In this document: in pieces, positions 7,045 through 39,270 of the stretch
Layout of the letters: each line of letters opens with the position of its first letter
Position numbering within the stretch: the first letter of the stretch is position 1
IMG/VR virus record: IMGVR_UViG_3300027969_000044
Coordinates: 32,001 to 96,000 of that record
DNA: 64,000 nucleotides
DNA from: a virus
Direction: 5' to 3' (one strand)
Position numbers and translations under genes: made by a program
Notes under the pieces: generated by a model
Seen by the model: the letters and a program-made list of their open reading frames with translations, nothing else
The model's database searches: none
Told to the model about the DNA's origin: nothing

Positions 7045-7506
7045 ATGATATTCAATAAAGTTAAGGAACTAAAAGACAAAGGTTTAAAGATTGGCATTAC
7101 CTTTAGTCAGTTCGACATGTTACACGCTGGACATATTGCTATGTTAAGCGAAGCCAAAAATCACTGCGACTACCTAATTGCTGGTTTACAAAATAACGCC
7201 AAGTGGGATCGCCCGGAAAAGAACGAACCAATCCAAAGTATTGTAGAAAGACAAATACAACTTAGTGCTACTCGCTTTGTTGACGAAATTGTTGTGTACA
7301 ATACAGAAAAGGATCTGGAAGACATTCTATTGACATTACCCGTAGATGTGCGTATACTAGGAGTTGAGTATAAAGATAAAGACTTTACAGGTAAAAACAT
7401 TTGTAATAGCAGAGGAATTGAAATTGTCTATAACGGACGAGATCATTCATTTAGTTCATCTAGTCTACGCAAACGTGTGGCAGAAGCAGAAAGCAAAAAG
7501 AAATGA
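7045..7506 (+). CDS. HxGH cytidylyltransferase (TagD/glycerol-3-phosphate cytidylyltransferase-like)
   Basis: FDMLHAGH, ER..QL and SSSSLR motifs. Confidence 0.85.
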   Translation: MIFNKVKELKDKGLKIGITFSQFDMLHAGHIAMLSEAKNHCDYLIAGLQNNAKWDRPEKNEPIQSIVERQIQLSATRFVDEIVVYNTEKDLEDILLTLPVDVRILGVEYKDKDFTGKNICNSRGIEIVYNGRDHSFSSSSLRKRVAEAESKKK

Positions 7507-14801: not shown

Positions 14802-15305
14802 ATGCTAGAAATTAAAAAATTCCCCGACCCAATTTTAAAAGAACGTCTACAAGACTTTGATTTTGAAAATCCAGTAATGGATCCTGTAGAACTTGAACGC
14901 GAAATGTTAGCAACTATGTTTGCCAACAACGGTATCGGTCTTGCAGCAAATCAAGTTGGGATTAATGCCCGCGTGTTTGTAATGGGTTCTAAAGAAAACT
15001 TTTTAATGGCTAAAGCGTACTTTAATCCAAAGGTGCTTGCCAATACAGATACACTACAAGAACTGGAGGAAGGATGTTTGAGTTTTTCCAATATTTTTGT
15101 TAAAATAAAAAGACCAGATGCTATTAAGGTTGAATATCAAAATTCAAAAGGTGAAACTGAAACTTCAGAATTTAGTGGGTGGGACTGTAGAGTGTTTCTA
15201 CACGAATTTGATCATTTGGAAGGTATTACTTTCCAGGATCGAACTAGCCAACTTAAATGGGCATTAGCAATTAAGAAATCAAAACCTAAAAGGAAAGTAA
15301 AATAA
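14802..15305 (+). CDS. def: Peptide deformylase
   Basis: GIGLAANQ, EGCLS and HEFDH motifs. Confidence 0.95.
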   Translation: MLEIKKFPDPILKERLQDFDFENPVMDPVELEREMLATMFANNGIGLAANQVGINARVFVMGSKENFLMAKAYFNPKVLANTDTLQELEEGCLSFSNIFVKIKRPDAIKVEYQNSKGETETSEFSGWDCRVFLHEFDHLEGITFQDRTSQLKWALAIKKSKPKRKVK

Positions 15306-15306
15306 T

Positions 15307-17595
15307 ATGATATTGGAACCAAACAGCGATCTTGAACAGATTTTTGAAAGAGCAGTTAATCTTGCCATTAAGAATCAGCACGAGTATATAACACTTGAGC
15401 ATTTCTTACACAGCATGGTCGTTGATCAAAAGTTTGGAGCATTGCTCAAGGACTTTGGAGCAGAGGTAGCTGACCTAAAAGCTAACCTAGAAAACTTCAT
15501 CGATAAAGAACTAGACGATATCAAGGTAGTTGCTAAAGATCAAAAGCCAAAGAAAACAAACACAGTTGAGCGTATGCTTAATCGTGCGTTTACACAGGTA
15601 TTGTTTAGCGGACGTAATGTAATTGATCCAGTTGATTGCTTTATTAGCCTGTTTGCCGAAAAGAAGAGTTTTGCCAACTACTTTTTACGTAAAGCTAAAG
15701 TAGACAAAGATGCGTTTATTAAATGGATTAATGAAGAAAATTCTAAAGACGAAGAAGAAGGCAGCGAAGGCGGCCGTGGTGGTGGTAGAGACTTAGATCG
15801 TTTGATTGGAAAGTATTGTGTTAACCTAACACAAAAAGTAAAGAACAAACAAATTGATCCTGTTATTGGCCGCGAAAAAGAGATCGAAGAAATTCAACTG
15901 GTACTTGCTCGCCGTACAAAGTCAAACGTTATGATGATCGGTGATCCGGGTGTAGGTAAGACTGCTATTGCTGAAGGTCTAGCACGTAAGATCTTTGAAG
16001 GTAGCGTTCCTAAATTTATTTTAAATCACACAGTTTATAGTCTAGACATCAGTGCTATGATCGCAGGTAGCAAATATCGCGGTGACTTTGAAGAACGTTT
16101 GAAAGGTGTTATTAAAGCACTTGAAAATAAGAAAGACGCTATTTTGTTTATCGACGAAGCACACATGATGAATGGTGCTGGATCAGCAGGTAGTGGTTCT
16201 AATGACATGTCTAATATGCTTAAACCAGCATTGGGCAAAGGTACTATTAAAGTTGTAGCAAGTACAACATGGGAAGAGTTCCGTAAACACTTTGAAAAAG
16301 ATCGTGCGTTGATGCGTCGATTCCAGCGTGTAGTTGTTAACGAACCTAACGAAGCTACCGCCATTAAGATCATCAAAGGTCTTAAAAAGTATTACGAAAA
16401 ACATCACGGTGTTAAGATTACAAATCAGGCCATTATTGATAGTGTTAAGTATTCTATCAAATACATGACTGATAAGAAGTTGCCAGATAAGGCAATTGAC
16501 TTAATTGACTGTGCGTGTGCTCGCTTTAAGGTTAGAGATCAGGAAGCAGGTATTGTTGATCACGACGAAATCTTGTTTGAAGTTAGTAAGATCGCAAACT
16601 TGCCTTTAGATCAAATTGCATCTAAAGAAAACAAGAATCTTGTTAACCTTGAAAAGAATATGCGTGGTAAGGTGTTTGGTCAAGAGAAAGCAATTGAAAT
16701 TCTGCTTGATAAAATCTTTATCGCACAAGCAGGGTTAAAGAGTATTAACAAACCAGTTGGTAACTTCTTGTTTGTTGGTCCAACTGGTGTTGGTAAAACT
16801 GAAACTGCTAAACAATTAGCAAGTAATATGAGTGTAGAACTTGTTCGCTTTGATATGAGCGAATTCCAAGAACAACATTCTGTTGCCAAGTTTATTGGTG
16901 CTCCTCCGGGATATGTGGGCTTTGAAGACAACGCAGGTCAGTTGATCACTAAACTACAAGAACATCCTAACTGTATCTTGTTACTTGACGAGATTGAAAA
17001 AGCTCACCCAAGTGTAGCAAACGTTCTACTACAACTTATGGATAACGGTTATGTTACTGGTTCAAATGGAAAAGTAGCAGACGGTCGTAATTGTATTTTG
17101 ATTATGACCAGTAACCTAGGTGCCGCTGATGCTGAAAAGAACGCGGTAGGATTTGGCAGTTTAGAACGTGATGATGACAGCAAAGATGCTATTAACACAT
17201 TCTTTAAACCCGAGTTTCGGAACCGTTTAGACGGCATTATCAAGTTTGGCAAGTTGGATCAAACTACTATGGTTAAGATTGTTAAGAAGTTTATTGACGA
17301 ACTTAATTCATTGTTAAAAGATCGCCATGTTCATGTTAAGCCCGATGCTGACGCAGTTGAGCTATTGATCAAGAAAGGCTTTAACAGTAAAATGGGCGCT
17401 CGTCCACTAGCACGTACTATTGACGACTTAATCAAGAAGCCGTTAAGTAAGCAGATTCTTTTTGGCAACTTACAAAATGGCGGATTAGTAGAAATACTAG
17501 TTAAAGGCGATGACCTTATGCTAAATTACATCGAAACATTACCAGTTGTTGATGTGAAAGCCGAAGAGATACAAATTGAAGACGCTGGAAACTAA
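15307..17595 (+). CDS. clpA: ClpA-type AAA+ unfoldase
   Basis: Clp N-domain, two Walker A motifs ([16 protein letters not shown]), no long ClpB M-domain, VGF ClpP-docking loop. Confidence 0.9.
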
Positions 17596-18764: not shown

Positions 18765-19154
18765 ATGAAACTTCTCGAATTCTTCGGAAAACCTATAGAA
18801 ATACACCAGGATAAAAACGATTCCCGTAAACCGGGAGAAGATCCTAAGTTAAATCGCGAAGAAGAAGATCAGCTTGCTAACGATATATTAGAGTATATCC
18901 TTAACAACGACGAGCTACACAAAAAGCAGTTTTTACCCGTAGCAAGAAAACTCCACAAAAACCCAACAACACATCACAAGCCTGATGTATGGCTACCTTT
19001 AGTAAACAAAGGATGTATGGAGTTTTACAAAGAACGAGATATGAGTGGCGATCCAATGGATCTATTCAATAAAGAATTTAGGTCTGACTTATGTAAGAAA
19101 TTTTCAGACCATAACAAACACATCCTCATGGGTGAATACAATCTCGGAAGATAA
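18765..19154 (+). CDS. Candidate capsid-internal protein
   Basis: N-terminus MKLLEFF; TAAATA at 18707-18712 upstream. Confidence 0.55.
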   Translation: MKLLEFFGKPIEIHQDKNDSRKPGEDPKLNREEEDQLANDILEYILNNDELHKKQFLPVARKLHKNPTTHHKPDVWLPLVNKGCMEFYKERDMSGDPMDLFNKEFRSDLCKKFSDHNKHILMGEYNLGR

Positions 19155-19157
19155 CCC

Positions 19158-22100
19158 ATGCTATTAAATGAATTTTTTAAAAGATCATTAACCGAGGGCG
19201 GAAATCTTGCCATTGGTCAAGATCAAGCGCAAAGCATTGATTTAAAAGTACACAACAGAGCTTTTATAGTTCCTATACTTACAAAACTATTATACGGAAT
19301 TAACGATGGGTTTGCCGCAGTTAATCAAAAGCCATTGTGGAATCCCGCCCTATTACAAAAGGGAGAATTCCTAAGCGGCTCTAGTTTACATTTCTTCAAC
19401 ACAAAGATTCCCGACGAGCAATTTGAAAAAGTTAAACCTAAAGTAGGCGACATTGACACACAAGTTGATAAGTTAATGGAGAAAGAACTAGAAGGATGGT
19501 TAAACTCTGTTAAGGGTAAACTTATTGGCGGAGGTAAGTTAATTGGCTTTGAGAGAGGCAACGAGCAATACAGTAGTCTATGGGAATTACAAGACCCTCC
19601 TATTAAAATACAAATTGACTTAGAGTTTGTTGCGTTTGACAAAGAAGAACCAACAGCATGGAGTAAATTTAGTCACTCAAGTGATTGGGAAGATATACAA
19701 GCAGGTGTCAAAGGTGTATTCCACAAATGGTTGATACAGTCATTTACAGATCTAACTACTCGTGATTTCTTATTGCGTAAACTAGTAGGTCGCGGCAAAG
19801 CCCGTGTTGAGCAAGATGTACCTGCCAATGACAACTTATTATCCTTTGCTGTTAGCAGTAAAGAAGGTGGCGGACTACGTCCTAAGTACGAGCCAGTGAC
19901 AGACGAAGCTGGACAGCCGTTAATTGTAGACGGGCTACCTGTTATGCGAGCATTGCCTCCTGCGGGATACGAACAAGACATTGGTAAGATATTTGCTCTA
20001 ATCTTTGGAGACAGAATTGATCCTAAGAAAGCAAAACAACTAAGCACTAAGTTTTGGTCATTTACTGGCTTGCTAGATGTAATGACACAGGTGTTAAGTC
20101 CTGAAGAACAACAACAAGTTGTACAGGCATTTATACATAAACTGTATGACAAGGGCGCACAAGGTCTTTATAAAAATGATCCAGAACGTGATGCCGAAGA
20201 AAAAGATGCCGCTATGGCCAAGATGCTTGAAGTATTAAAAATAGCGCCTCCTCCAGAACTAGCACAGATGAAGCAGTCATATCAAGCAAATTACAGAATG
20301 ACTACAAATGAAAGCCTGCGTGAAGCTGAAGAACCAGCACCAGTTAAGGCACAGCTACGCAAAGGTATGCCACACTTACACGATCTAAAGGCTCCTGATT
20401 TTTTAGACCTATTAGATGAGATTCACGACGGCAACGGTAACTTCAAGTTACAAAACGTTCCATTAAATGTCAAAGTAGACGGCTTTGGTGGACGATTTGG
20501 TAAAGATGCTAACGGTAAACCATTCATGGGTACTAGCCGAACAGAGCCACGTTACGAAGCCAGCTTTGTCAAGTATCATCAACAAAAGGGCACAACAGAT
20601 CCAGAGATCTTAGGTCGTGCTCAAATGTTTGACGACTTGTTTAAAGAAATGATGAACGCTATTAAACTAGTCGATGGCAAACTAGGCCCAGACTTTTTAA
20701 TCAACAAACAAGTAACTTGTGAAGTATTGTTCTTACCATTTGCTACACAAACTGACGAAGGTCGTTTAAAGTTTGTGGGCATTGAATACGATCAACTACC
20801 ACAAGGTGTACAACTGGCACTAGTTCCATTTCATGCTGTAGAAGCAGATAGTGGAGAGCCTGTTGAAGATCCAGAATTTATTGATAGCTTACTTGAAGTA
20901 GGTAATCAAGGTAGTGTTATGTTTATTAACAATAGACTAGCACAGAAAGAAGGACTTGACGTTACAGAAATTATCAATGTATTAGATAACATTGAAGAAC
21001 TAAAACAAATTGTATCTGATACAGCAGGCAAGCGTGACCGCGCTAGTCTACAGTTAAAGAAAGAAGTAGAAGAAAAACTACAACCTATTAAAGATCAATT
21101 AGAGCAAGCAATTATTAAAGATCCTAACATTATTGGAAAAGATATGTTAGGTAAAGACTATGAAGGCATTGTTATTAACAGTCGTCTCGGTCCTATCAAA
21201 ATTACCAGTCAAGAACAGCGTGATGTTATCAGTGCCAAGTTAGATGCTAAGAAAAATGCTCGCACAGAACGTCCCCGTGATAATCAAAACAAGACAGCAG
21301 TAGTTGCCATTGGTAGCTTTGTTGGACACAAGGGTCATCAAGAACTTTGGCAGTATACACAACAAGAAGCCCAAACACTGGGCGGCGATCCGTATTTGTT
21401 CATCGGTAATGCCGAAGGCAAAGACGATCCTATTCCTGTTCCCGACAAACTTAAAACATGGCACATGTTGTATCCGCAGTTTGCCAAAAACATCAGCGCG
21501 GTTACGCACGAAGGTGGAAGCATTATGCAGAAGATTAAACACGAGTTGATTAATCCTTTACCAGGCAAGCCTCCACGTTACGACAATATTGTTATTATGG
21601 TTGGCGAAGATCGTAAAGACTTACCGTTAGGTAAAGCTCTAATGAAAGCTGTTAATAAGTTTCCAGGATACGAGCACGTTAAAGTAGACTTAAAAGTTAC
21701 TCCACGTGGTCAAGGAGTAAGCGGCACTGCTCTTAGAAATATTCTAAAGACAGGCAACCCTAACCAACAATACACATTCTGGAATGACACATTTAACGGT
21801 GGCAAGTTTGGATCACAACAATTAACTCCAGAATGGATTAAACACCTAATGGATGTAACCAAGAAAGGTATGGGCATTACTACCCCTTCAGTTACAGCAC
21901 CAATTAAGAAACAGGAACAACCAACTATGGCTAAACCTCAACAACCAGTACAGCAACAGCAACCAGAGCAAGAGCCGTTAGCTGAAAGTATCCGTAGAGA
22001 AATTATGATTACTCGAGCAGAGATTGCTTGGCAGAAAGAATTGTCGGAAGCAAGGATGAGTGCTGCCGTTAAACTTCAACGAGCCTTTGATAGAGAGCGT

Positions 22101-23633
22101 TCTAAGAGTGACGCTAGTCGTCAACGTGCTGACGCGGCCAAGGCAGCGTTTGAGAAAGAGTGGAAAGCTAAACAAGAAAAAGAAAAGCAAGGTGTGGCAG
22201 AAGATTTAGAAACAGGACATGTGCAAATGCTTTTACATAAAGCATTACAGGCACGCAGAGAAGGCAAACCATTGCAAAGTGTAATGCGTAAAGAAGAAAT
22301 TGCATTATTATCTATGTTGCAAGGAAGTGGAAAACTACAAGGTATGGTTAAAAATAAAAGTGTAGGCGAGGCGCCAATTGAAATGGATCCTGCAGAACCA
22401 ATGAATCCTACAATCTACGGACATCAAGGAGTTAACTCTGCCGAATTAAAAACTCGCATGATGCGAGCTCAAGGACAATTAGCAGACCTGGCAAAGAGAG
22501 CACAAAACGCTAGCCCAATTGAATGGGAAATAATTACACGTAATTTTAAAGAGTTGTCAATGAACATTGAACAGATTCGTCACGCACTAGAAGAACTAGC
22601 TAAAGTTCGCAAGCGTGGTGGGATTCGATCTAGAGGCATTGATAAAAATATTGGTGAGCAAGGTGTGGCGGAAGGCTTATTAGACCCTTCTAAAAGAACT
22701 CAGCTTATTCGTTTCCTAGCAAAGAAAATGGATTGGGAAGTTAACTATCTCGAACTTGCTACTGATCATGAACTTATCAAATGGTACAAAAAAGTACAAG
22801 CCGGTCAAGATCCAATGAAGGAAGATTCGGTAAATGAATTAGTTGGTTATAAAAGCGATAAAAATTATCTAGCGGTAGGTACCCATAAACGATACGATGT
22901 ATATGTGGGTAAAAAGAAGTTTAATAATTTATACTTTATTGCAATTGCAGAAAATCCAAGAACATTAGATGCTAAATTTAAAGCCAAGGGCAATACTCCA
23001 CAAGAGGCAGTAAATAATTTAAAATTAGAAATTGATAAAGAAATTGATGTTGCTACCAAAGTTAGTGGTGCGGCTATATTAGATTTTAATGTAGATTTTG
23101 TAAAAGAAATATTAGAAATGAGTATTGATACGTTTTACGCTAAAATTATTTCAGGTCCTAAATTAGTAATAGCAGGTAGAGAAATGATGGAATACCCTGA
23201 TATTATGAAAAGTGAAGGGTTTAAACCTAGTACCATTAGAACTTACAAAGGCGGAGAAGGTACTACTAAACTACCCGGAGTACCATTAAGCGCCGGAGCG
23301 GCTGCGGCTGCAAGTCTTATTGCCAACGGTAGATATGTATTAGGCGCAGAAACTACAGATAAAGACGGTAACAGAGTATTCAATTTAGAATTTGATAGCG
23401 TTGTTCAAGCATCAAACGATAAAATGAGATTAAGAGCACCTGCGGTTACTGTAGGAACTAATAGATCACAAGGTGTTGCGGAGGCCGGTAAGATTAAGGG
23501 CGCTGACGGTAAAGCCTGTTGGAAAGGTTATAAGTACGCAGGTACTAAGAACGGTAAAGACAAGTGTGTTCCAGTTAGCGAAGATGCGGAACAACTAATG
23601 GCAGGTTTTATTAAGTTGTTGGAATCAAAGTAA
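19158..23633 (+). CDS. Large multidomain protein: Pol-beta-like NTase + ligase-like KxDG domain + HxGH nucleotidyltransferase + modular C-terminal cargo; candidate internal head polyprotein
   Basis: LSGS...GDID...QIDL; NVKVDG...EGIV...IKI; GHKGH...VGEDR...SGTALR; QGVAE three times; CWKGY...CVP terminal module. Confidence 0.7.
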   Translation: MLLNEFFKRSLTEGGNLAIGQDQAQSIDLKVHNRAFIVPILTKLLYGINDGFAAVNQKPLWNPALLQKGEFLSGSSLHFFNTKIPDEQFEKVKPKVGDIDTQVDKLMEKELEGWLNSVKGKLIGGGKLIGFERGNEQYSSLWELQDPPIKIQIDLEFVAFDKEEPTAWSKFSHSSDWEDIQAGVKGVFHKWLIQSFTDLTTRDFLLRKLVGRGKARVEQDVPANDNLLSFAVSSKEGGGLRPKYEPVTDEAGQPLIVDGLPVMRALPPAGYEQDIGKIFALIFGDRIDPKKAKQLSTKFWSFTGLLDVMTQVLSPEEQQQVVQAFIHKLYDKGAQGLYKNDPERDAEEKDAAMAKMLEVLKIAPPPELAQMKQSYQANYRMTTNESLREAEEPAPVKAQLRKGMPHLHDLKAPDFLDLLDEIHDGNGNFKLQNVPLNVKVDGFGGRFGKDANGKPFMGTSRTEPRYEASFVKYHQQKGTTDPEILGRAQMFDDLFKEMMNAIKLVDGKLGPDFLINKQVTCEVLFLPFATQTDEGRLKFVGIEYDQLPQGVQLALVPFHAVEADSGEPVEDPEFIDSLLEVGNQGSVMFINNRLAQKEGLDVTEIINVLDNIEELKQIVSDTAGKRDRASLQLKKEVEEKLQPIKDQLEQAIIKDPNIIGKDMLGKDYEGIVINSRLGPIKITSQEQRDVISAKLDAKKNARTERPRDNQNKTAVVAIGSFVGHKGHQELWQYTQQEAQTLGGDPYLFIGNAEGKDDPIPVPDKLKTWHMLYPQFAKNISAVTHEGGSIMQKIKHELINPLPGKPPRYDNIVIMVGEDRKDLPLGKALMKAVNKFPGYEHVKVDLKVTPRGQGVSGTALRNILKTGNPNQQYTFWNDTFNGGKFGSQQLTPEWIKHLMDVTKKGMGITTPSVTAPIKKQEQPTMAKPQQPVQQQQPEQEPLAESIRREIMITRAEIAWQKELSEARMSAAVKLQRAFDRERSKSDASRQRADAAKAAFEKEWKAKQEKEKQGVAEDLETGHVQMLLHKALQARREGKPLQSVMRKEEIALLSMLQGSGKLQGMVKNKSVGEAPIEMDPAEPMNPTIYGHQGVNSAELKTRMMRAQGQLADLAKRAQNASPIEWEIITRNFKELSMNIEQIRHALEELAKVRKRGGIRSRGIDKNIGEQGVAEGLLDPSKRTQLIRFLAKKMDWEVNYLELATDHELIKWYKKVQAGQDPMKEDSVNELVGYKSDKNYLAVGTHKRYDVYVGKKKFNNLYFIAIAENPRTLDAKFKAKGNTPQEAVNNLKLEIDKEIDVATKVSGAAILDFNVDFVKEILEMSIDTFYAKIISGPKLVIAGREMMEYPDIMKSEGFKPSTIRTYKGGEGTTKLPGVPLSAGAAAAASLIANGRYVLGAETTDKDGNRVFNLEFDSVVQASNDKMRLRAPAVTVGTNRSQGVAEAGKIKGADGKACWKGYKYAGTKNGKDKCVPVSEDAEQLMAGFIKLLESK

Positions 23634-24040
23634 TGCTATTAACACAGCTATTTGAATCAGCAACTAATGACGCAACCCTAATGGATATGTTGCCTACGTT
23701 CTTACCTTTAGCTTTAGAAATTTTAGAATTACGCAACGTGCCTAATATTAAATTAGAAAAGTTTATTGACGACGAAGTACAACCTACATTTGGTAAATTT
23801 GTCAGTGATGAGAACATAATTTACTTAGGAATTGCCAACAGACACCCTGTAGATATTTTACGTACACTGGCACACGAAATGGTACATTATAAACAAAACA
23901 TAGAGCACGATCTAGATAGCGAATCAGGTCGCACAGGAAGTCCTCAAGAAAATCAAGCACATGAAATTGCCGGAGTTATTATGCGAGAGTTTAATAAAGC
24001 AAATCCAGAATTCCTAAAAGCTAGGCCATTAGAGTTTTAA
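23633..24040 (+). CDS. Small HExxH zinc metallopeptidase-like protein
   Basis: LRTLAHEMVHYKQ followed by ENQA; N-terminus MLLTQLFE. Confidence 0.75.
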   Translation: MLLTQLFESATNDATLMDMLPTFLPLALEILELRNVPNIKLEKFIDDEVQPTFGKFVSDENIIYLGIANRHPVDILRTLAHEMVHYKQNIEHDLDSESGRTGSPQENQAHEIAGVIMREFNKANPEFLKARPLEF

Positions 24041-24051
24041 TAAATACCCAT

Positions 24052-24435
24052 ATGAGAGCAAACGAATTTATTTCTGAAAATCGCAAAGCAGGCAAAGTAA
24101 AGAAACGTGCCGCGGCTGTACAGCAAGGCATTAGAAAGTCTCGCGATGTTGGCGGATATGATCGTGTAAATCACATGAATCGTTTGTGGATGGCAACTGC
24201 TATGGCAGACGGCCAAAGTAAAAAAGGTGTAGATATGGATAGTTACAGTTGGATGGAAAAATACAACACACAACATCCATATACACAAGAAGAATACAAT
24301 ATGTTCAGGCAAGCAGAAAATACTGTCCCAACGGATAGTAAAGAAGTTACACCATGGACAAAGAGTGTAGAGCCAGAAGATACTTATAAAGTAAGTCCGT
24401 CCTCTACATGGAATGTTAAGAAGAAAAAGAAATGA
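24052..24435 (+). CDS. Candidate capsid-internal protein
   Basis: N-terminus MRANEFISE; basic; TAAATA 5 nt before the ATG. Confidence 0.65.
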   Translation: MRANEFISENRKAGKVKKRAAAVQQGIRKSRDVGGYDRVNHMNRLWMATAMADGQSKKGVDMDSYSWMEKYNTQHPYTQEEYNMFRQAENTVPTDSKEVTPWTKSVEPEDTYKVSPSSTWNVKKKKK

Positions 24436-31836: not shown

Positions 31837-32020
31837 TAAAATGGAAAAACACATTGAAATCTTAAAAGAGATTAGAAATGTGCTTGACAGAGACATAGCA
31901 GAGAAGTTAAAATATAGTAGTGCTAGTCAAGACGAGATTGATCAAATGAAAGCTCGTCTACTAGAAATGGACAGACAAATCGAACAAGAATTAAAGAGTA
32001 TTGGAAACAGATATGAATAG
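31820..32020 (+). CDS. Small coiled-coil hypothetical protein
   Basis: 66-aa ORF overlapping its neighbours. Confidence 0.55.
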   Translation: MRMSLDKMEKHIEILKEIRNVLDRDIAEKLKYSSASQDEIDQMKARLLEMDRQIEQELKSIGNRYE

Positions 32021-38670: not shown

Positions 38671-38872
38671 AAAAGACTCAGACGGTAATGGTCCCTCTTA
38701 TAAGAAAGGCGACCGAGTATGGGTTGCCTCTTTAAAAATGGAAGCTACTGTAATTGAACAGGTGCTTCATTGGGACTATCCTGAATCATTTTACGGCAAT
38801 GTCAAATTAAAGTATGACGACGGTGTTGAAGGAATTAGTAATTGTTGGCAATTGTCAAGGGTAGTTAGATGA
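38657..38872 (+). CDS. Small SH3/KOW-like hypothetical protein
   Basis: YKKGDRVWV pattern. Confidence 0.55.
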   Translation: MPRYRKDSDGNGPSYKKGDRVWVASLKMEATVIEQVLHWDYPESFYGNVKLKYDDGVEGISNCWQLSRVVR

Positions 38873-39270
38873 AAACTGTAATTGTTAACGGAACATTTGA
38901 TATACTTCACCCTGGACATATCAGAATGTTAAACACAGCACGTAGTTTAGGTGACTATCTCATTGTGTGTATTGATACTGACCGTCGTGTTAAAGAACTT
39001 AAAGGCGATCAGCGTCCAATTAATGATCAAAACTTTCGAAGAGTAATGCTACAAAATCTCAAGGCTGTAGACATAGTAGAATTCTTTGACAGTCGAGAAC
39101 AATTAATAGATTTAATTAAATTGTACAAGCCAGATATTATGGTTAAAGGTAGTGACTGGAAAGGTAAGAGTATAACTGCTCAAGAACACGTTAAGGAAAT
39201 CTTTTGGTATGATAGATTCGATGAATACTCAACAACAAAAATCATTCAAGATATTATTAATCGGGGATAA
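38869..39270 (+). CDS. HldE/RfaE domain II-like sugar-1-phosphate nucleotidyltransferase
   Basis: NGTFDILHPGH, LKG..RPIN, PDI.VKGSDW and STTKII motifs. Confidence 0.88.
   Translation: MKTVIVNGTFDILHPGHIRMLNTARSLGDYLIVCIDTDRRVKELKGDQRPINDQNFRRVMLQNLKAVDIVEFFDSREQLIDLIKLYKPDIMVKGSDWKGKSITAQEHVKEIFWYDRFDEYSTTKIIQDIINRG

Follow-up and report, generated by a model that had tools for sequence, protein, structure and literature searches.

Known phage head cargo includes inhibitors (IPI*), ADP-ribosyltransferases, RNA polymerases, and lytic enzymes. The T4 capsid-targeting sequence (CTS), MKTYQEFIAE, is removed once inside the head (PMC8442874; PMC3012670). Polyvalent proteins are another kind of injected protein, in which many unrelated enzymatic domains share one polypeptide that is processed into units (Iyer et al. 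2017, PMC5512222). A third point of comparison is provided by the Pol-beta enzymes of the RlaP family, which extend the damaged 3' ends of RNA by 1-2 nucleotides and act together with RNA ligases (PMC12776372); RlaP-RNA ligase pairing is common in jumbo phages, where the distribution of RlaP tracks that of RNA ligases (PMC7824862). Here we describe a gene at 19158-23633 on the + strand of a 64,000-nucleotide stretch of viral DNA (positions 32,001 to 96,000 of IMG/VR virus record IMGVR_UViG_3300027969_000044, hereafter the window), which encodes a PolX-like domain, an RNA-ligase-like domain, and a HxGH nucleotidyltransferase domain behind a T4-CTS-like leader. From its sequence and by analogy with these systems, we lean, by a little more than an even chance, towards the view that its product is a cargo precursor that is cut in the head, injected, and used for fill-and-seal repair of RNA or DNA breaks.

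The original prediction ended the feature at 21880, which would give a protein of about 907 amino acids (aa). The open reading frame (ORF) continues to 23633 and encodes 1491 aa, 21880 being the end of the third domain only. Its description of the product as one polypeptide carrying three unrelated nucleotidyltransferase folds holds as far as the folds are concerned, those of the first two domains (D1 and D2) on a structural model and invariant residues and that of the third (D3) on sequence; a single trifunctional product is not what we expect, as the chain is probably cut into D1 and D2-D3. The ORF and its N-terminal part are laid out as follows.

19158-23633, + strand: full ORF, 1491 aa.
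19158-19196, + strand, aa 1-13: leader MLLNEFFKRSLTE, a capsid-targeting-like peptide with L-T-E before GGN, recognised from its conservation and its likeness to the T4 CTS.
19197-20324, + strand, aa 14-389: D1, a predicted Pol-beta-superfamily nucleotidyltransferase with a PolX-like palm and thumb and a C-terminal helical bundle, assigned from the model, its motifs, and phrog_19290.
20316-20324, + strand, aa 387-389: L-R-E, predicted head-protease cut site between D1 and D2, from the conservation of [LIVM]xE in the linker.
20325-21272, + strand, aa 390-705: D2, a predicted ligase/capping-type (lysine-nucleotidylating) domain, RNA-ligase-like and lacking an oligonucleotide-binding (OB) domain, assigned from the model and invariant motifs.
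21273-21872, + strand, aa ~706-905: D3, a probable HxGH (HIGH-motif) nucleotidyltransferase with no cut site between it and D2, assigned from sequence evidence.

Every motif on which the original prediction relied lies on the translation at the residue it gave: LSGS at 72, GDID at 97, QIDL at 152, LRE at 387, KVDG at 439, EGIV at 669, IKI at 680, HKGH at 724, GEDR at 816, and SGTALR at 855. A family search of 5.8 billion proteins (8000 candidates scored, E <0.001) matched more than 700 clusters, whose members have the first ~910 residues in common at 54-80% identity and are wholly different in length and content beyond them. Cluster look-up returned only 'hypothetical protein', with no functional name among the family clusters. 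Across 43 aligned full-length members (55-80% identity), G74, S75, D98, D100, D154, K439, D441, G442, E669, G670, K681, H724, H727, S855, and R860 are all invariant, and the motifs are therefore not chance matches. Two checks that had been proposed, fold recovery by AlphaFold2 and Foldseek and conservation of the catalytic residues, came out in favour of the assignments: the models of D1 and D2 (predicted local distance difference test, pLDDT, 92 and 90, respectively) recover Pol-beta and ligase folds, and the motif residues of D1, D2, and D3 are kept in homologues.

D1 is, on its AlphaFold2 model (for which the alignment consisted of 34 stand-alone relatives), a Pol-beta-superfamily fold closest to the PolX palm and thumb. 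The Pol-beta signature is present as hG[GS] (G74-S75), DxD (D98-x-D100), and a third carboxylate, D154, on a later strand; all five residues are also invariant in the 34 stand-alone D1 sequences. Foldseek matches in the PDB have weak E-values (at least 0.007) and are mostly to Pol beta, lambda, and mu, poly(A) polymerase, MenT, ANT(2''), and alarmone synthetases. The best 50 rows of a comparison with structure representatives (VIA) are nearly all of the Pol-beta superfamily (Z 8.2-5.3). When the Foldseek top 1000 were re-aligned, DNA polymerase mu came first (Z 8.5, root-mean-square deviation (rmsd) 3.2-3.6 over 162-167 residues, model residues 16-298), followed by Pol lambda, Pol beta, and TUT7, with Z 7-8 also for Trf4 and GLD-2; PolX of African swine fever virus (ASFV) aligned with Z 6.7 over 164 residues. 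No region of D1 aligned with the PolX fingers or 8-kDa domains. D1 has no Pfam match, and its PHROG, phrog_19290, is annotated as of unknown function. The RlaP profile (PF10127) matched neither the protein (E up to 1) nor 33 homologues (E up to 0.05). Although the tool grades Z values of 7-8 as middling, we accept the Pol-beta fold, because the match list is homogeneous, the palm and thumb are covered, and the GS...DxD...D set is invariant.

D2 is, likewise on its model, a divergent member of the lysine-nucleotidylating ligase superfamily, RNA-ligase-like and without an OB domain. The best 50 Foldseek matches are all ATP-dependent RNA or DNA ligases (probability 0.66-1.0). In VIA, the best match is the adenylyltransferase domain of the Naegleria RNA ligase (NgrRnl, Rnl5), with Z 11.2 and rmsd 3.3 over 190 residues, ahead of REL1 (Z 9.8), T4 Rnl2 (Z 9.6), and DNA ligases (Z ~8.5). 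Only 212 relatives of D2 came up when 1.84 billion representatives were scanned in full with HMMER, and many of them are stand-alone proteins of ~300 aa. In 45 stand-alone D2 sequences at 22-33% identity, only nine residues are invariant: K439, D441, G442, E522, Y544, E669, G670, and K681, together with G448. The first eight of these correspond to ligase motifs I, III, IIIa, IV, and V, which places D2 in the superfamily. D2 has no Pfam or NCBIfam match, and curated ligase families match its relatives only below threshold (P0343, E 1.2e-3). Profiles of the whole core, of D1, and of D2 gave nothing meaningful against PDB sequences, so both families are recognisable only by fold and motifs. Within the 166-kb source record, a six-frame search with the RlaP profile (E up to 0.1) and the RNA_ligase profile (PF09414) likewise yielded no match; since the record is ~46% complete, missing matches of this kind, including that to NAPRTase discussed below, are weak evidence.

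D3 is very probably a HxGH nucleotidyltransferase, judging from its motifs and profile matches. It matches the cytidyltransferase family phrog_3041 (E 1.3e-9), and the NCBIfam RibF model extends over 160 of its residues (E 1.4e-4), under the curated cut-off. A D3-only profile aligns with solved RibF structures in the PDB (E 5.6e-4), again below the curated cut-off, and Pfam FAD_syn is matched in 25 of 33 family members. Against a small set of phage cytidylyltransferases, hhalign with the D3-only profile gave 61% probability and E 8e-5 over 124 columns, with HxGH, GxDR, and SxT in register. The HxGH motif reads G-S-F-V-G-H724-K-G-H727, and the C-terminal ISxT-type motif S855-x-T857-x-x-R860. 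H724, H727, and R860 are invariant in all three D3-bearing alignments (A1, A4, and A6) and S855 in both full-length ones (A1 and A4), while T857 is invariant in A1 and nearly so in A4 and A6. Pfam CTP_transf_like (PF01467) has no match in D3 at E up to 0.1, and the NMNAT models are likewise unmatched at threshold. A search for stand-alone D3 found nothing beyond fragments and D2-D3 proteins belonging to this family. As a lead only, the language-model neighbours of D3 are phage CTP_transf_like clusters. Two further small genes in the window, at 7045-7506 and 38869-39270, encode canonical Pfam CTP_transf_like enzymes (38 and 68 bits, respectively), so that with D3 there are three HxGH nucleotidyltransferases in this window alone.

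The N-terminus and linkers point to processing in the phage head. The leader MLLNEFFKRSLTE resembles the T4 CTS; many stand-alone D2 proteins start MKTFKQFLSE, MISFKQFIEE, or MKTYDEF..., which are close to it. All 42 aligned homologues retain [LIVM]xE ahead of GGN, as do all 62 IMG/VR three-domain ORFs that have GGN in the first 40 residues (L in 41, V in 11, I in 10). The LRE that the original prediction saw separating the first two domains is one instance of an [LIVM]xE that all 59 distinct three-domain homologues in IMG/VR carry in the D1/D2 linker; by eye, it is also present there in all 42 aligned homologues and in the two-domain proteins. In the D2/D3 linker the motif occurs in 0 of 59. 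At one locus (L051), D1 and D2-D3 are separate genes, split at the D1/D2 junction. Another homologue (P0120) carries an extra module of ~45 aa in this linker, between two [LIV]xE sites (SLEE... and ...SVNE). QGVAE occurs at aa 1011, 1168, and 1438 of the present protein, and the V-A-E of each fits the cut-site pattern. A head protease of gp21 type is encoded in the same record (Peptidase_S77, 91 bits, E 4.6e-27; G000:C1:131888-132319), and the C-terminus of some homologues bears a LysM, phage lysozyme, or VanY domain. The remainder of the ORF is divided by the QGVAE joints.

21873-22202, + strand, aa 906-1015: Q/P-rich linker and charged helical segment, with the first QGVAE at its end (22188-22202), as read from the translation.
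22203-22673, + strand, aa 1016-1172: C-terminal module without a PHROG match, ending in the second QGVAE (22659-22673).
22674-23483, + strand, aa 1173-1442: C-terminal module without a PHROG match, ending in the third QGVAE (23469-23483).
23484-23633, + strand, aa 1443-1491: C-terminal tail with a CWKGY...C.PV motif (phrog_4359 at aa 1446-1472), and the stop codon.

The protein is thus probably a precursor, predicted from these features to be cut by the head protease. Given a cut motif in every D1/D2 linker and in none of the D2/D3 linkers, the mature products would be D1 alone and D2-D3 together. The full set is likely to consist of D1 (aa 14-389), D2-D3 together with the linker that follows it (aa 390-1015), two C-terminal modules, and a short tail. 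This contrast between the two linkers makes a clear, testable prediction of the mature products. The premise of the original prediction that the protein is packaged and injected also gains strong, indirect support from the T4-CTS-like leader, the conserved [LIV]xE sites, the gp21-type protease, and the peptidoglycan-hydrolase modules; from these we infer head targeting and cleavage.

At most loci, the three enzymes occur together. Among 80 IMG/VR loci holding D1, the architectures are distributed as follows.

Single ORF with the invariable order D1-D2-D3: 70 loci.
D1-D2: 2 loci.
D1, then a separate D2-D3 gene: 1 locus.
Three successive ORFs: 1 locus.
D1 alone: 6 loci.

D1 is accordingly fused to, or adjoins, D2 in 74 of the 80 loci, and also in Xanthomonas phage X1. 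D2-D3 forms without D1 exist, as does the reversed order, with a D3-like domain (Pfam CTP_transf_like, 24.4 bits) ahead of D2 in P0380. In a 650-aa metagenomic protein (P0286), D2 is fused to Pfam DUF6267 (E 4.7e-35). A relationship between DUF6267 and D1 was considered and rejected, as hhalign shows no relation.

In phage X1 (200 kb), four neighbouring genes, all leaderless, cover D1-, D2-, and D3-like enzymes.

D1-like gene: phrog_19290 (E 9e-21), starting MGGN.
334-aa gene between the D1-like and D2-like genes (L002:5023-6027): no family match.
D2-like gene: matched by the D2 profile (E 1.2e-48).
Cytidylyltransferase gene: Pfam-positive, in phrog_3041.

The 334-aa protein may be a fourth partner of the system. 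In hhalign, the full-length profile gave nothing against the single X1 cytidylyltransferase or the 334-aa protein, and the link between D3 and the X1 cytidylyltransferase rests on their common phrog_3041 and the profile-profile alignment given above. Cultured T4-like Vibrio and Campylobacter phages with stand-alone D1 also encode a ~490-aa fusion of ligase-like and cytidylyltransferase-like domains (phrog_27149), at L003:7492-8946 in Vibrio phage phiKT1024 and at L008:475-1986 in Campylobacter phage CPt10. These fusions have N-terminal KTDG or KYDG ... EG ligase motifs and a C-terminal Pfam CTP_transf_like domain. Homology between D2 and the Vibrio phage fusion was considered and finds no support (hhalign, 0.5% probability).

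The original prediction named three possible roles for such an injected trio: repair of cleaved tRNA or RNA, restoration of NAD or other cofactors, and nucleotidylation of host proteins. Among these we favour repair, because of the PolX-like character of D1, the closeness of D2 to nick-sealing RNA ligases, and a pairing that parallels that of RlaP with RNA ligase; nucleotidylation is possible, and nothing specific speaks for NAD restoration. In the proposed scheme, the 13-residue leader would bring the precursor into the prohead, where the gp21-type protease would cut after [LIV]-x-E at the leader, in the D1/D2 linker, and at the QGVAE joints. This would release the PolX-like D1, a two-domain D2-D3 protein (RNA-ligase-like and HxGH), and small C-terminal modules, all of which would remain in the head and enter the cell alongside the DNA. 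By analogy with the RlaP pairs, we infer that the two enzymes mend breaks made by host nucleases: D1 would add missing nucleotides to a 3'-OH end, and D2 would seal the break via a Lys439-nucleoside monophosphate intermediate. Acting together, they would reverse the harm done by nucleases to RNA (tRNA, for example) or to the incoming genome, ahead of phage gene expression. D3 would move a nucleotidyl group from a nucleoside triphosphate to a small phosphorylated compound serving D2; as a guess, its product may be an adenylylated cofactor. That giant T4-like phages inject a head-packaged repair kit, reversing host nuclease defences (cleaved tRNA, broken phage DNA) before phage expression, is a more speculative proposal that we make only tentatively. 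If true, counter-defences that are packaged in advance would gain a new class, made up of two enzyme families not recognised before, and it would be explained how some large phages tolerate nucleases active before phage gene expression.

Several observations weigh against this scheme. Neither an end-healing kinase nor a phosphatase is fused here, although the breaks left by most anticodon nucleases require one. D1 lies outside Pfam RlaP, and its structural Z of 7-8.5 is middling by the tool's own scale. The role of D3 in the repair scheme is unexplained, and its fold is assigned on sequence evidence only. The gene lies outside the structural block, in a neighbourhood of replication and metabolism genes (Lon-like protease, deformylase, and B-family DNA polymerase). 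The separate D2-D3 gene of L051 has no leader of its own. Finally, D1 is leaderless in phage X1 and at a further locus (L085), starting directly with MGGN, which means that the enzymes can be of use without injection.

The substrate signals diverge, D2 leaning towards RNA ligases while the best matches of D1 are DNA polymerases. One alternative, differing from the repair scheme above in substrate only, is therefore that the enzymes act on phage DNA, a PolX-like gap-filler and a ligase mending nicks, gaps, or restriction breaks, or joining genome ends. PolX and ligase are the base-excision repair enzymes of ASFV, which such a pair would resemble. The best and longest matches of D1 are polymerases mu, lambda, and beta, TdT, and ASFV PolX (160-185 residues, rmsd 3.2-4.4), and D2 also matches DNA ligases, including that of ASFV (Z ~8.4). 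However, D2 scores RNA ligases (Z 9.6-11.2) above DNA ligases, it has no OB domain, which DNA ligases use to clamp the nick, and D1 shows no match to the PolX fingers or 8-kDa domains. We consider a DNA-only role possible but unlikely.

Less likely still, the protein may not be packaged at all, its N-terminus and [LIV]xE motifs serving another role and the uncut multi-enzyme working in the cytoplasm during infection. The leaderless neighbouring-gene version in phage X1 lies near a primase/helicase gene, and the neighbourhood of the present gene is itself metabolic, both of which would suit a cytoplasmic enzyme. Such a role leaves the linker contrast (59/59 vs 0/59) without a reason, and it sits poorly with stand-alone D2 leaders near-identical to the T4 CTS, with the gp21-type protease that the genome encodes, and with homologues that carry peptidoglycan-hydrolase modules. 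Packaging followed by repair is thus still preferred.

A reading centred on D3 takes it to be an injected nicotinamide mononucleotide (NMN) or flavin mononucleotide (FMN) adenylyltransferase that rebuilds NAD+ or FAD against NAD-depleting defences, with the other domains serving the same end. D3 does have the HxGH and SxTxxR motifs that mark the superfamily to which NMNAT and FMNAT belong, the cytidylyltransferase domain of the Vibrio phage ligase fusion matches an NMNAT PHROG (E 2.8e-7), and phage NAD salvage by HIGH-superfamily enzymes has been described (PMC9503650). D3 itself matches neither NMNAT models nor Pfam CTP_transf_like at threshold, however, its best scores, though below threshold, being to RibF-type FMN adenylyltransferases, and there is no NadV/NAPRTase match in the ~46% complete record. 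As cofactor restoration also leaves the obligatory fusion of D3 to a ligase-like domain and the PolX-like D1 unexplained, we regard it as improbable. No better placed is the idea of injected host-takeover effectors modelled on AMPylators, MenT-type, or cGAS-like enzymes, in which D1 either nucleotidylates host proteins or produces or imitates nucleotide signals and D2 adenylates a non-nucleic-acid target: D1 matches OAS, cGAS-like receptors, CD-NTases, MenT, and aminoglycoside nucleotidyltransferases (Z 5.3-7.1), T4 head cargo includes the protein-modifying Alt, and a protein-modifying role was predicted for Pol-beta enzymes of polyvalent proteins (PMC5512222), but the longest low-rmsd matches of D1 are polymerases, D2 retains the full polynucleotide-ligase motif set, and the D1-D2 pairing mirrors known repair pairs.

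The B-family DNA polymerase of the record shares 50% identity with its counterpart in Sinorhizobium phage Phosso and 45% with those of 121Q/Rak2-like giant myoviruses, which identifies the source as an uncultured giant T4-like phage. Megablast of the gene against phage nucleotide records gave no match, and no tRNA genes are present in the window. The motif ATAAATA (in most cases CATAAATA), which resembles the T4 late promoter TATAAATA, is found 11-59 nt before ORF starts; 7 of 10 + strand occurrences fall no more than 60 nt from an ORF start, as listed here.

3480, 5110, 9735, 12456, 18270, 18706, and 24040, + strand: ATAAATA motifs near ORF starts.

One of these is 59 nt ahead of the first gene in the leader-bearing cluster and another is 12 nt ahead of the gene at 24052, which hints at late expression of the putative cargo cluster. 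A few genes upstream of that cluster, at 14802-17595, a peptide deformylase gene (phrog_2890) is immediately followed by one for a 762-aa Lon-like ATP-dependent protease (phrog_4871, E 3.5e-242). The genes on either side of the 1491-aa ORF are the following.

18765-19154, + strand: upstream neighbour, 129 aa, with a similar leader (MKLLEFFGKPIE).
23633-24040, + strand: downstream neighbour, a small HExxH metallopeptidase with leader MLLTQLFE (phrog_87, metallo-protease).

The start codon of the metallopeptidase gene overlaps the stop codon of the ORF. In other phages, modules encoded here by the flanking genes are joined to D1 via [LIVM]xE|GGN. Homologues of the 129-aa protein are fused N-terminal to D1 at three loci (L052, L087, and L088; E 3e-17 to 3e-19), and HExxH metallopeptidase homologues stand ahead of D1 at two (L043:5614-8871 and L089:5614-9879; 46-50% identity, E 1e-41 and 2e-36, respectively), with the joints I-S-E|GGN (L043) and I-M-E|GGN (L089). 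The metallopeptidase module is therefore a separate gene here and a polyprotein segment elsewhere. At the other end of the protein, aa 906-1015 gave only low-complexity matches in the PDB. The CWKGY...C.PV tail is kept at the very end of close homologues despite differing middle modules, and occurs in only 8 of 59 IMG/VR homologues.

These data describe three large families, each conserved at its catalytic residues, of which D1 and D2 also occur as stand-alone proteins. Because they are invisible to Pfam, the D1 and D2 families have been missed by routine annotation. As a divergent RNA-ligase-like enzyme with a built-in partner domain, D2 may be of interest to biochemistry or biotechnology.

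For D2, the closest described enzymes are Rnl5 of Naegleria gruberi, Rnl2 (T4 gp24.1), and REL1. They share motifs I, III, IIIa, IV, and V with it, and its nucleotidyltransferase fold (rmsd 3.3-3.5 over 183-196 residues), but are only 10-12% identical to it, with no profile-level match. D2 further differs in a long helical insert between motifs IIIa and IV, and in having neither the N-terminal OB domain of Rnl5 nor the C-terminal domain of Rnl2. The phrog_27149 fusions of T4-like Vibrio and Campylobacter phages have the D2-D3 domain order, and the same phages encode stand-alone D1; unlike the present protein, they have no leader, and hhalign detects no homology to D2.

At the level of the pair, RlaP with an ATP-dependent RNA ligase is the nearest parallel. 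There too a Pol-beta enzyme is physically linked to one of RNA-ligase type, and the proposed logic is similar, lost 3' nucleotides being restored before sealing (PMC12776372, PMC7824862). The RlaP pairs differ in that D1 has no RlaP match and is closest to PolX, and D2 has no Pfam RNA-ligase match at threshold. They are also cytoplasmic rather than head cargo, whereas here a third, HxGH enzyme is fused.

As cargo, the locus most resembles the T4 internal proteins and Alt, with which it has in common a MKTYQEFIAE-type leader, predicted cleavage after [LI]-x-E, a gp21-type protease, neighbours with the same leader, and diverse cargo behind a conserved leader (PMC3012670, PMC8442874). In T4, however, the cargo is either a small single protein (IPI-III) or an ADP-ribosyltransferase, in contrast to a 1491-aa chain of modules with predicted internal cut sites. 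Beyond the multidomain layout, polyvalent proteins have zincin-like metallopeptidase and lysozyme modules in common with some homologues of the present family; they differ in relying on an in-built peptidase, whereas processing here is predicted to be carried out by the head protease at [LIV]xE joints. Both targeting-leader head cargo and polyvalent injected proteins are thus already known as kinds. We found no PolX-like, RNA-ligase-like, or HxGH enzymes described as T4-type head cargo in the literature searched. The survey of polyvalent proteins reported Pol-beta domains in minimal form only and in conjugative elements only, and 2H phosphoesterase domains that never associate with RNA ligases (PMC5512222). 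For this reason, PolX-like and RNA-ligase/HxGH enzymes as cargo predicted to be processed by the head protease appear to be a new variant, and a packaged polymerase-ligase pair, if true, would add repair on arrival to the known head cargo.

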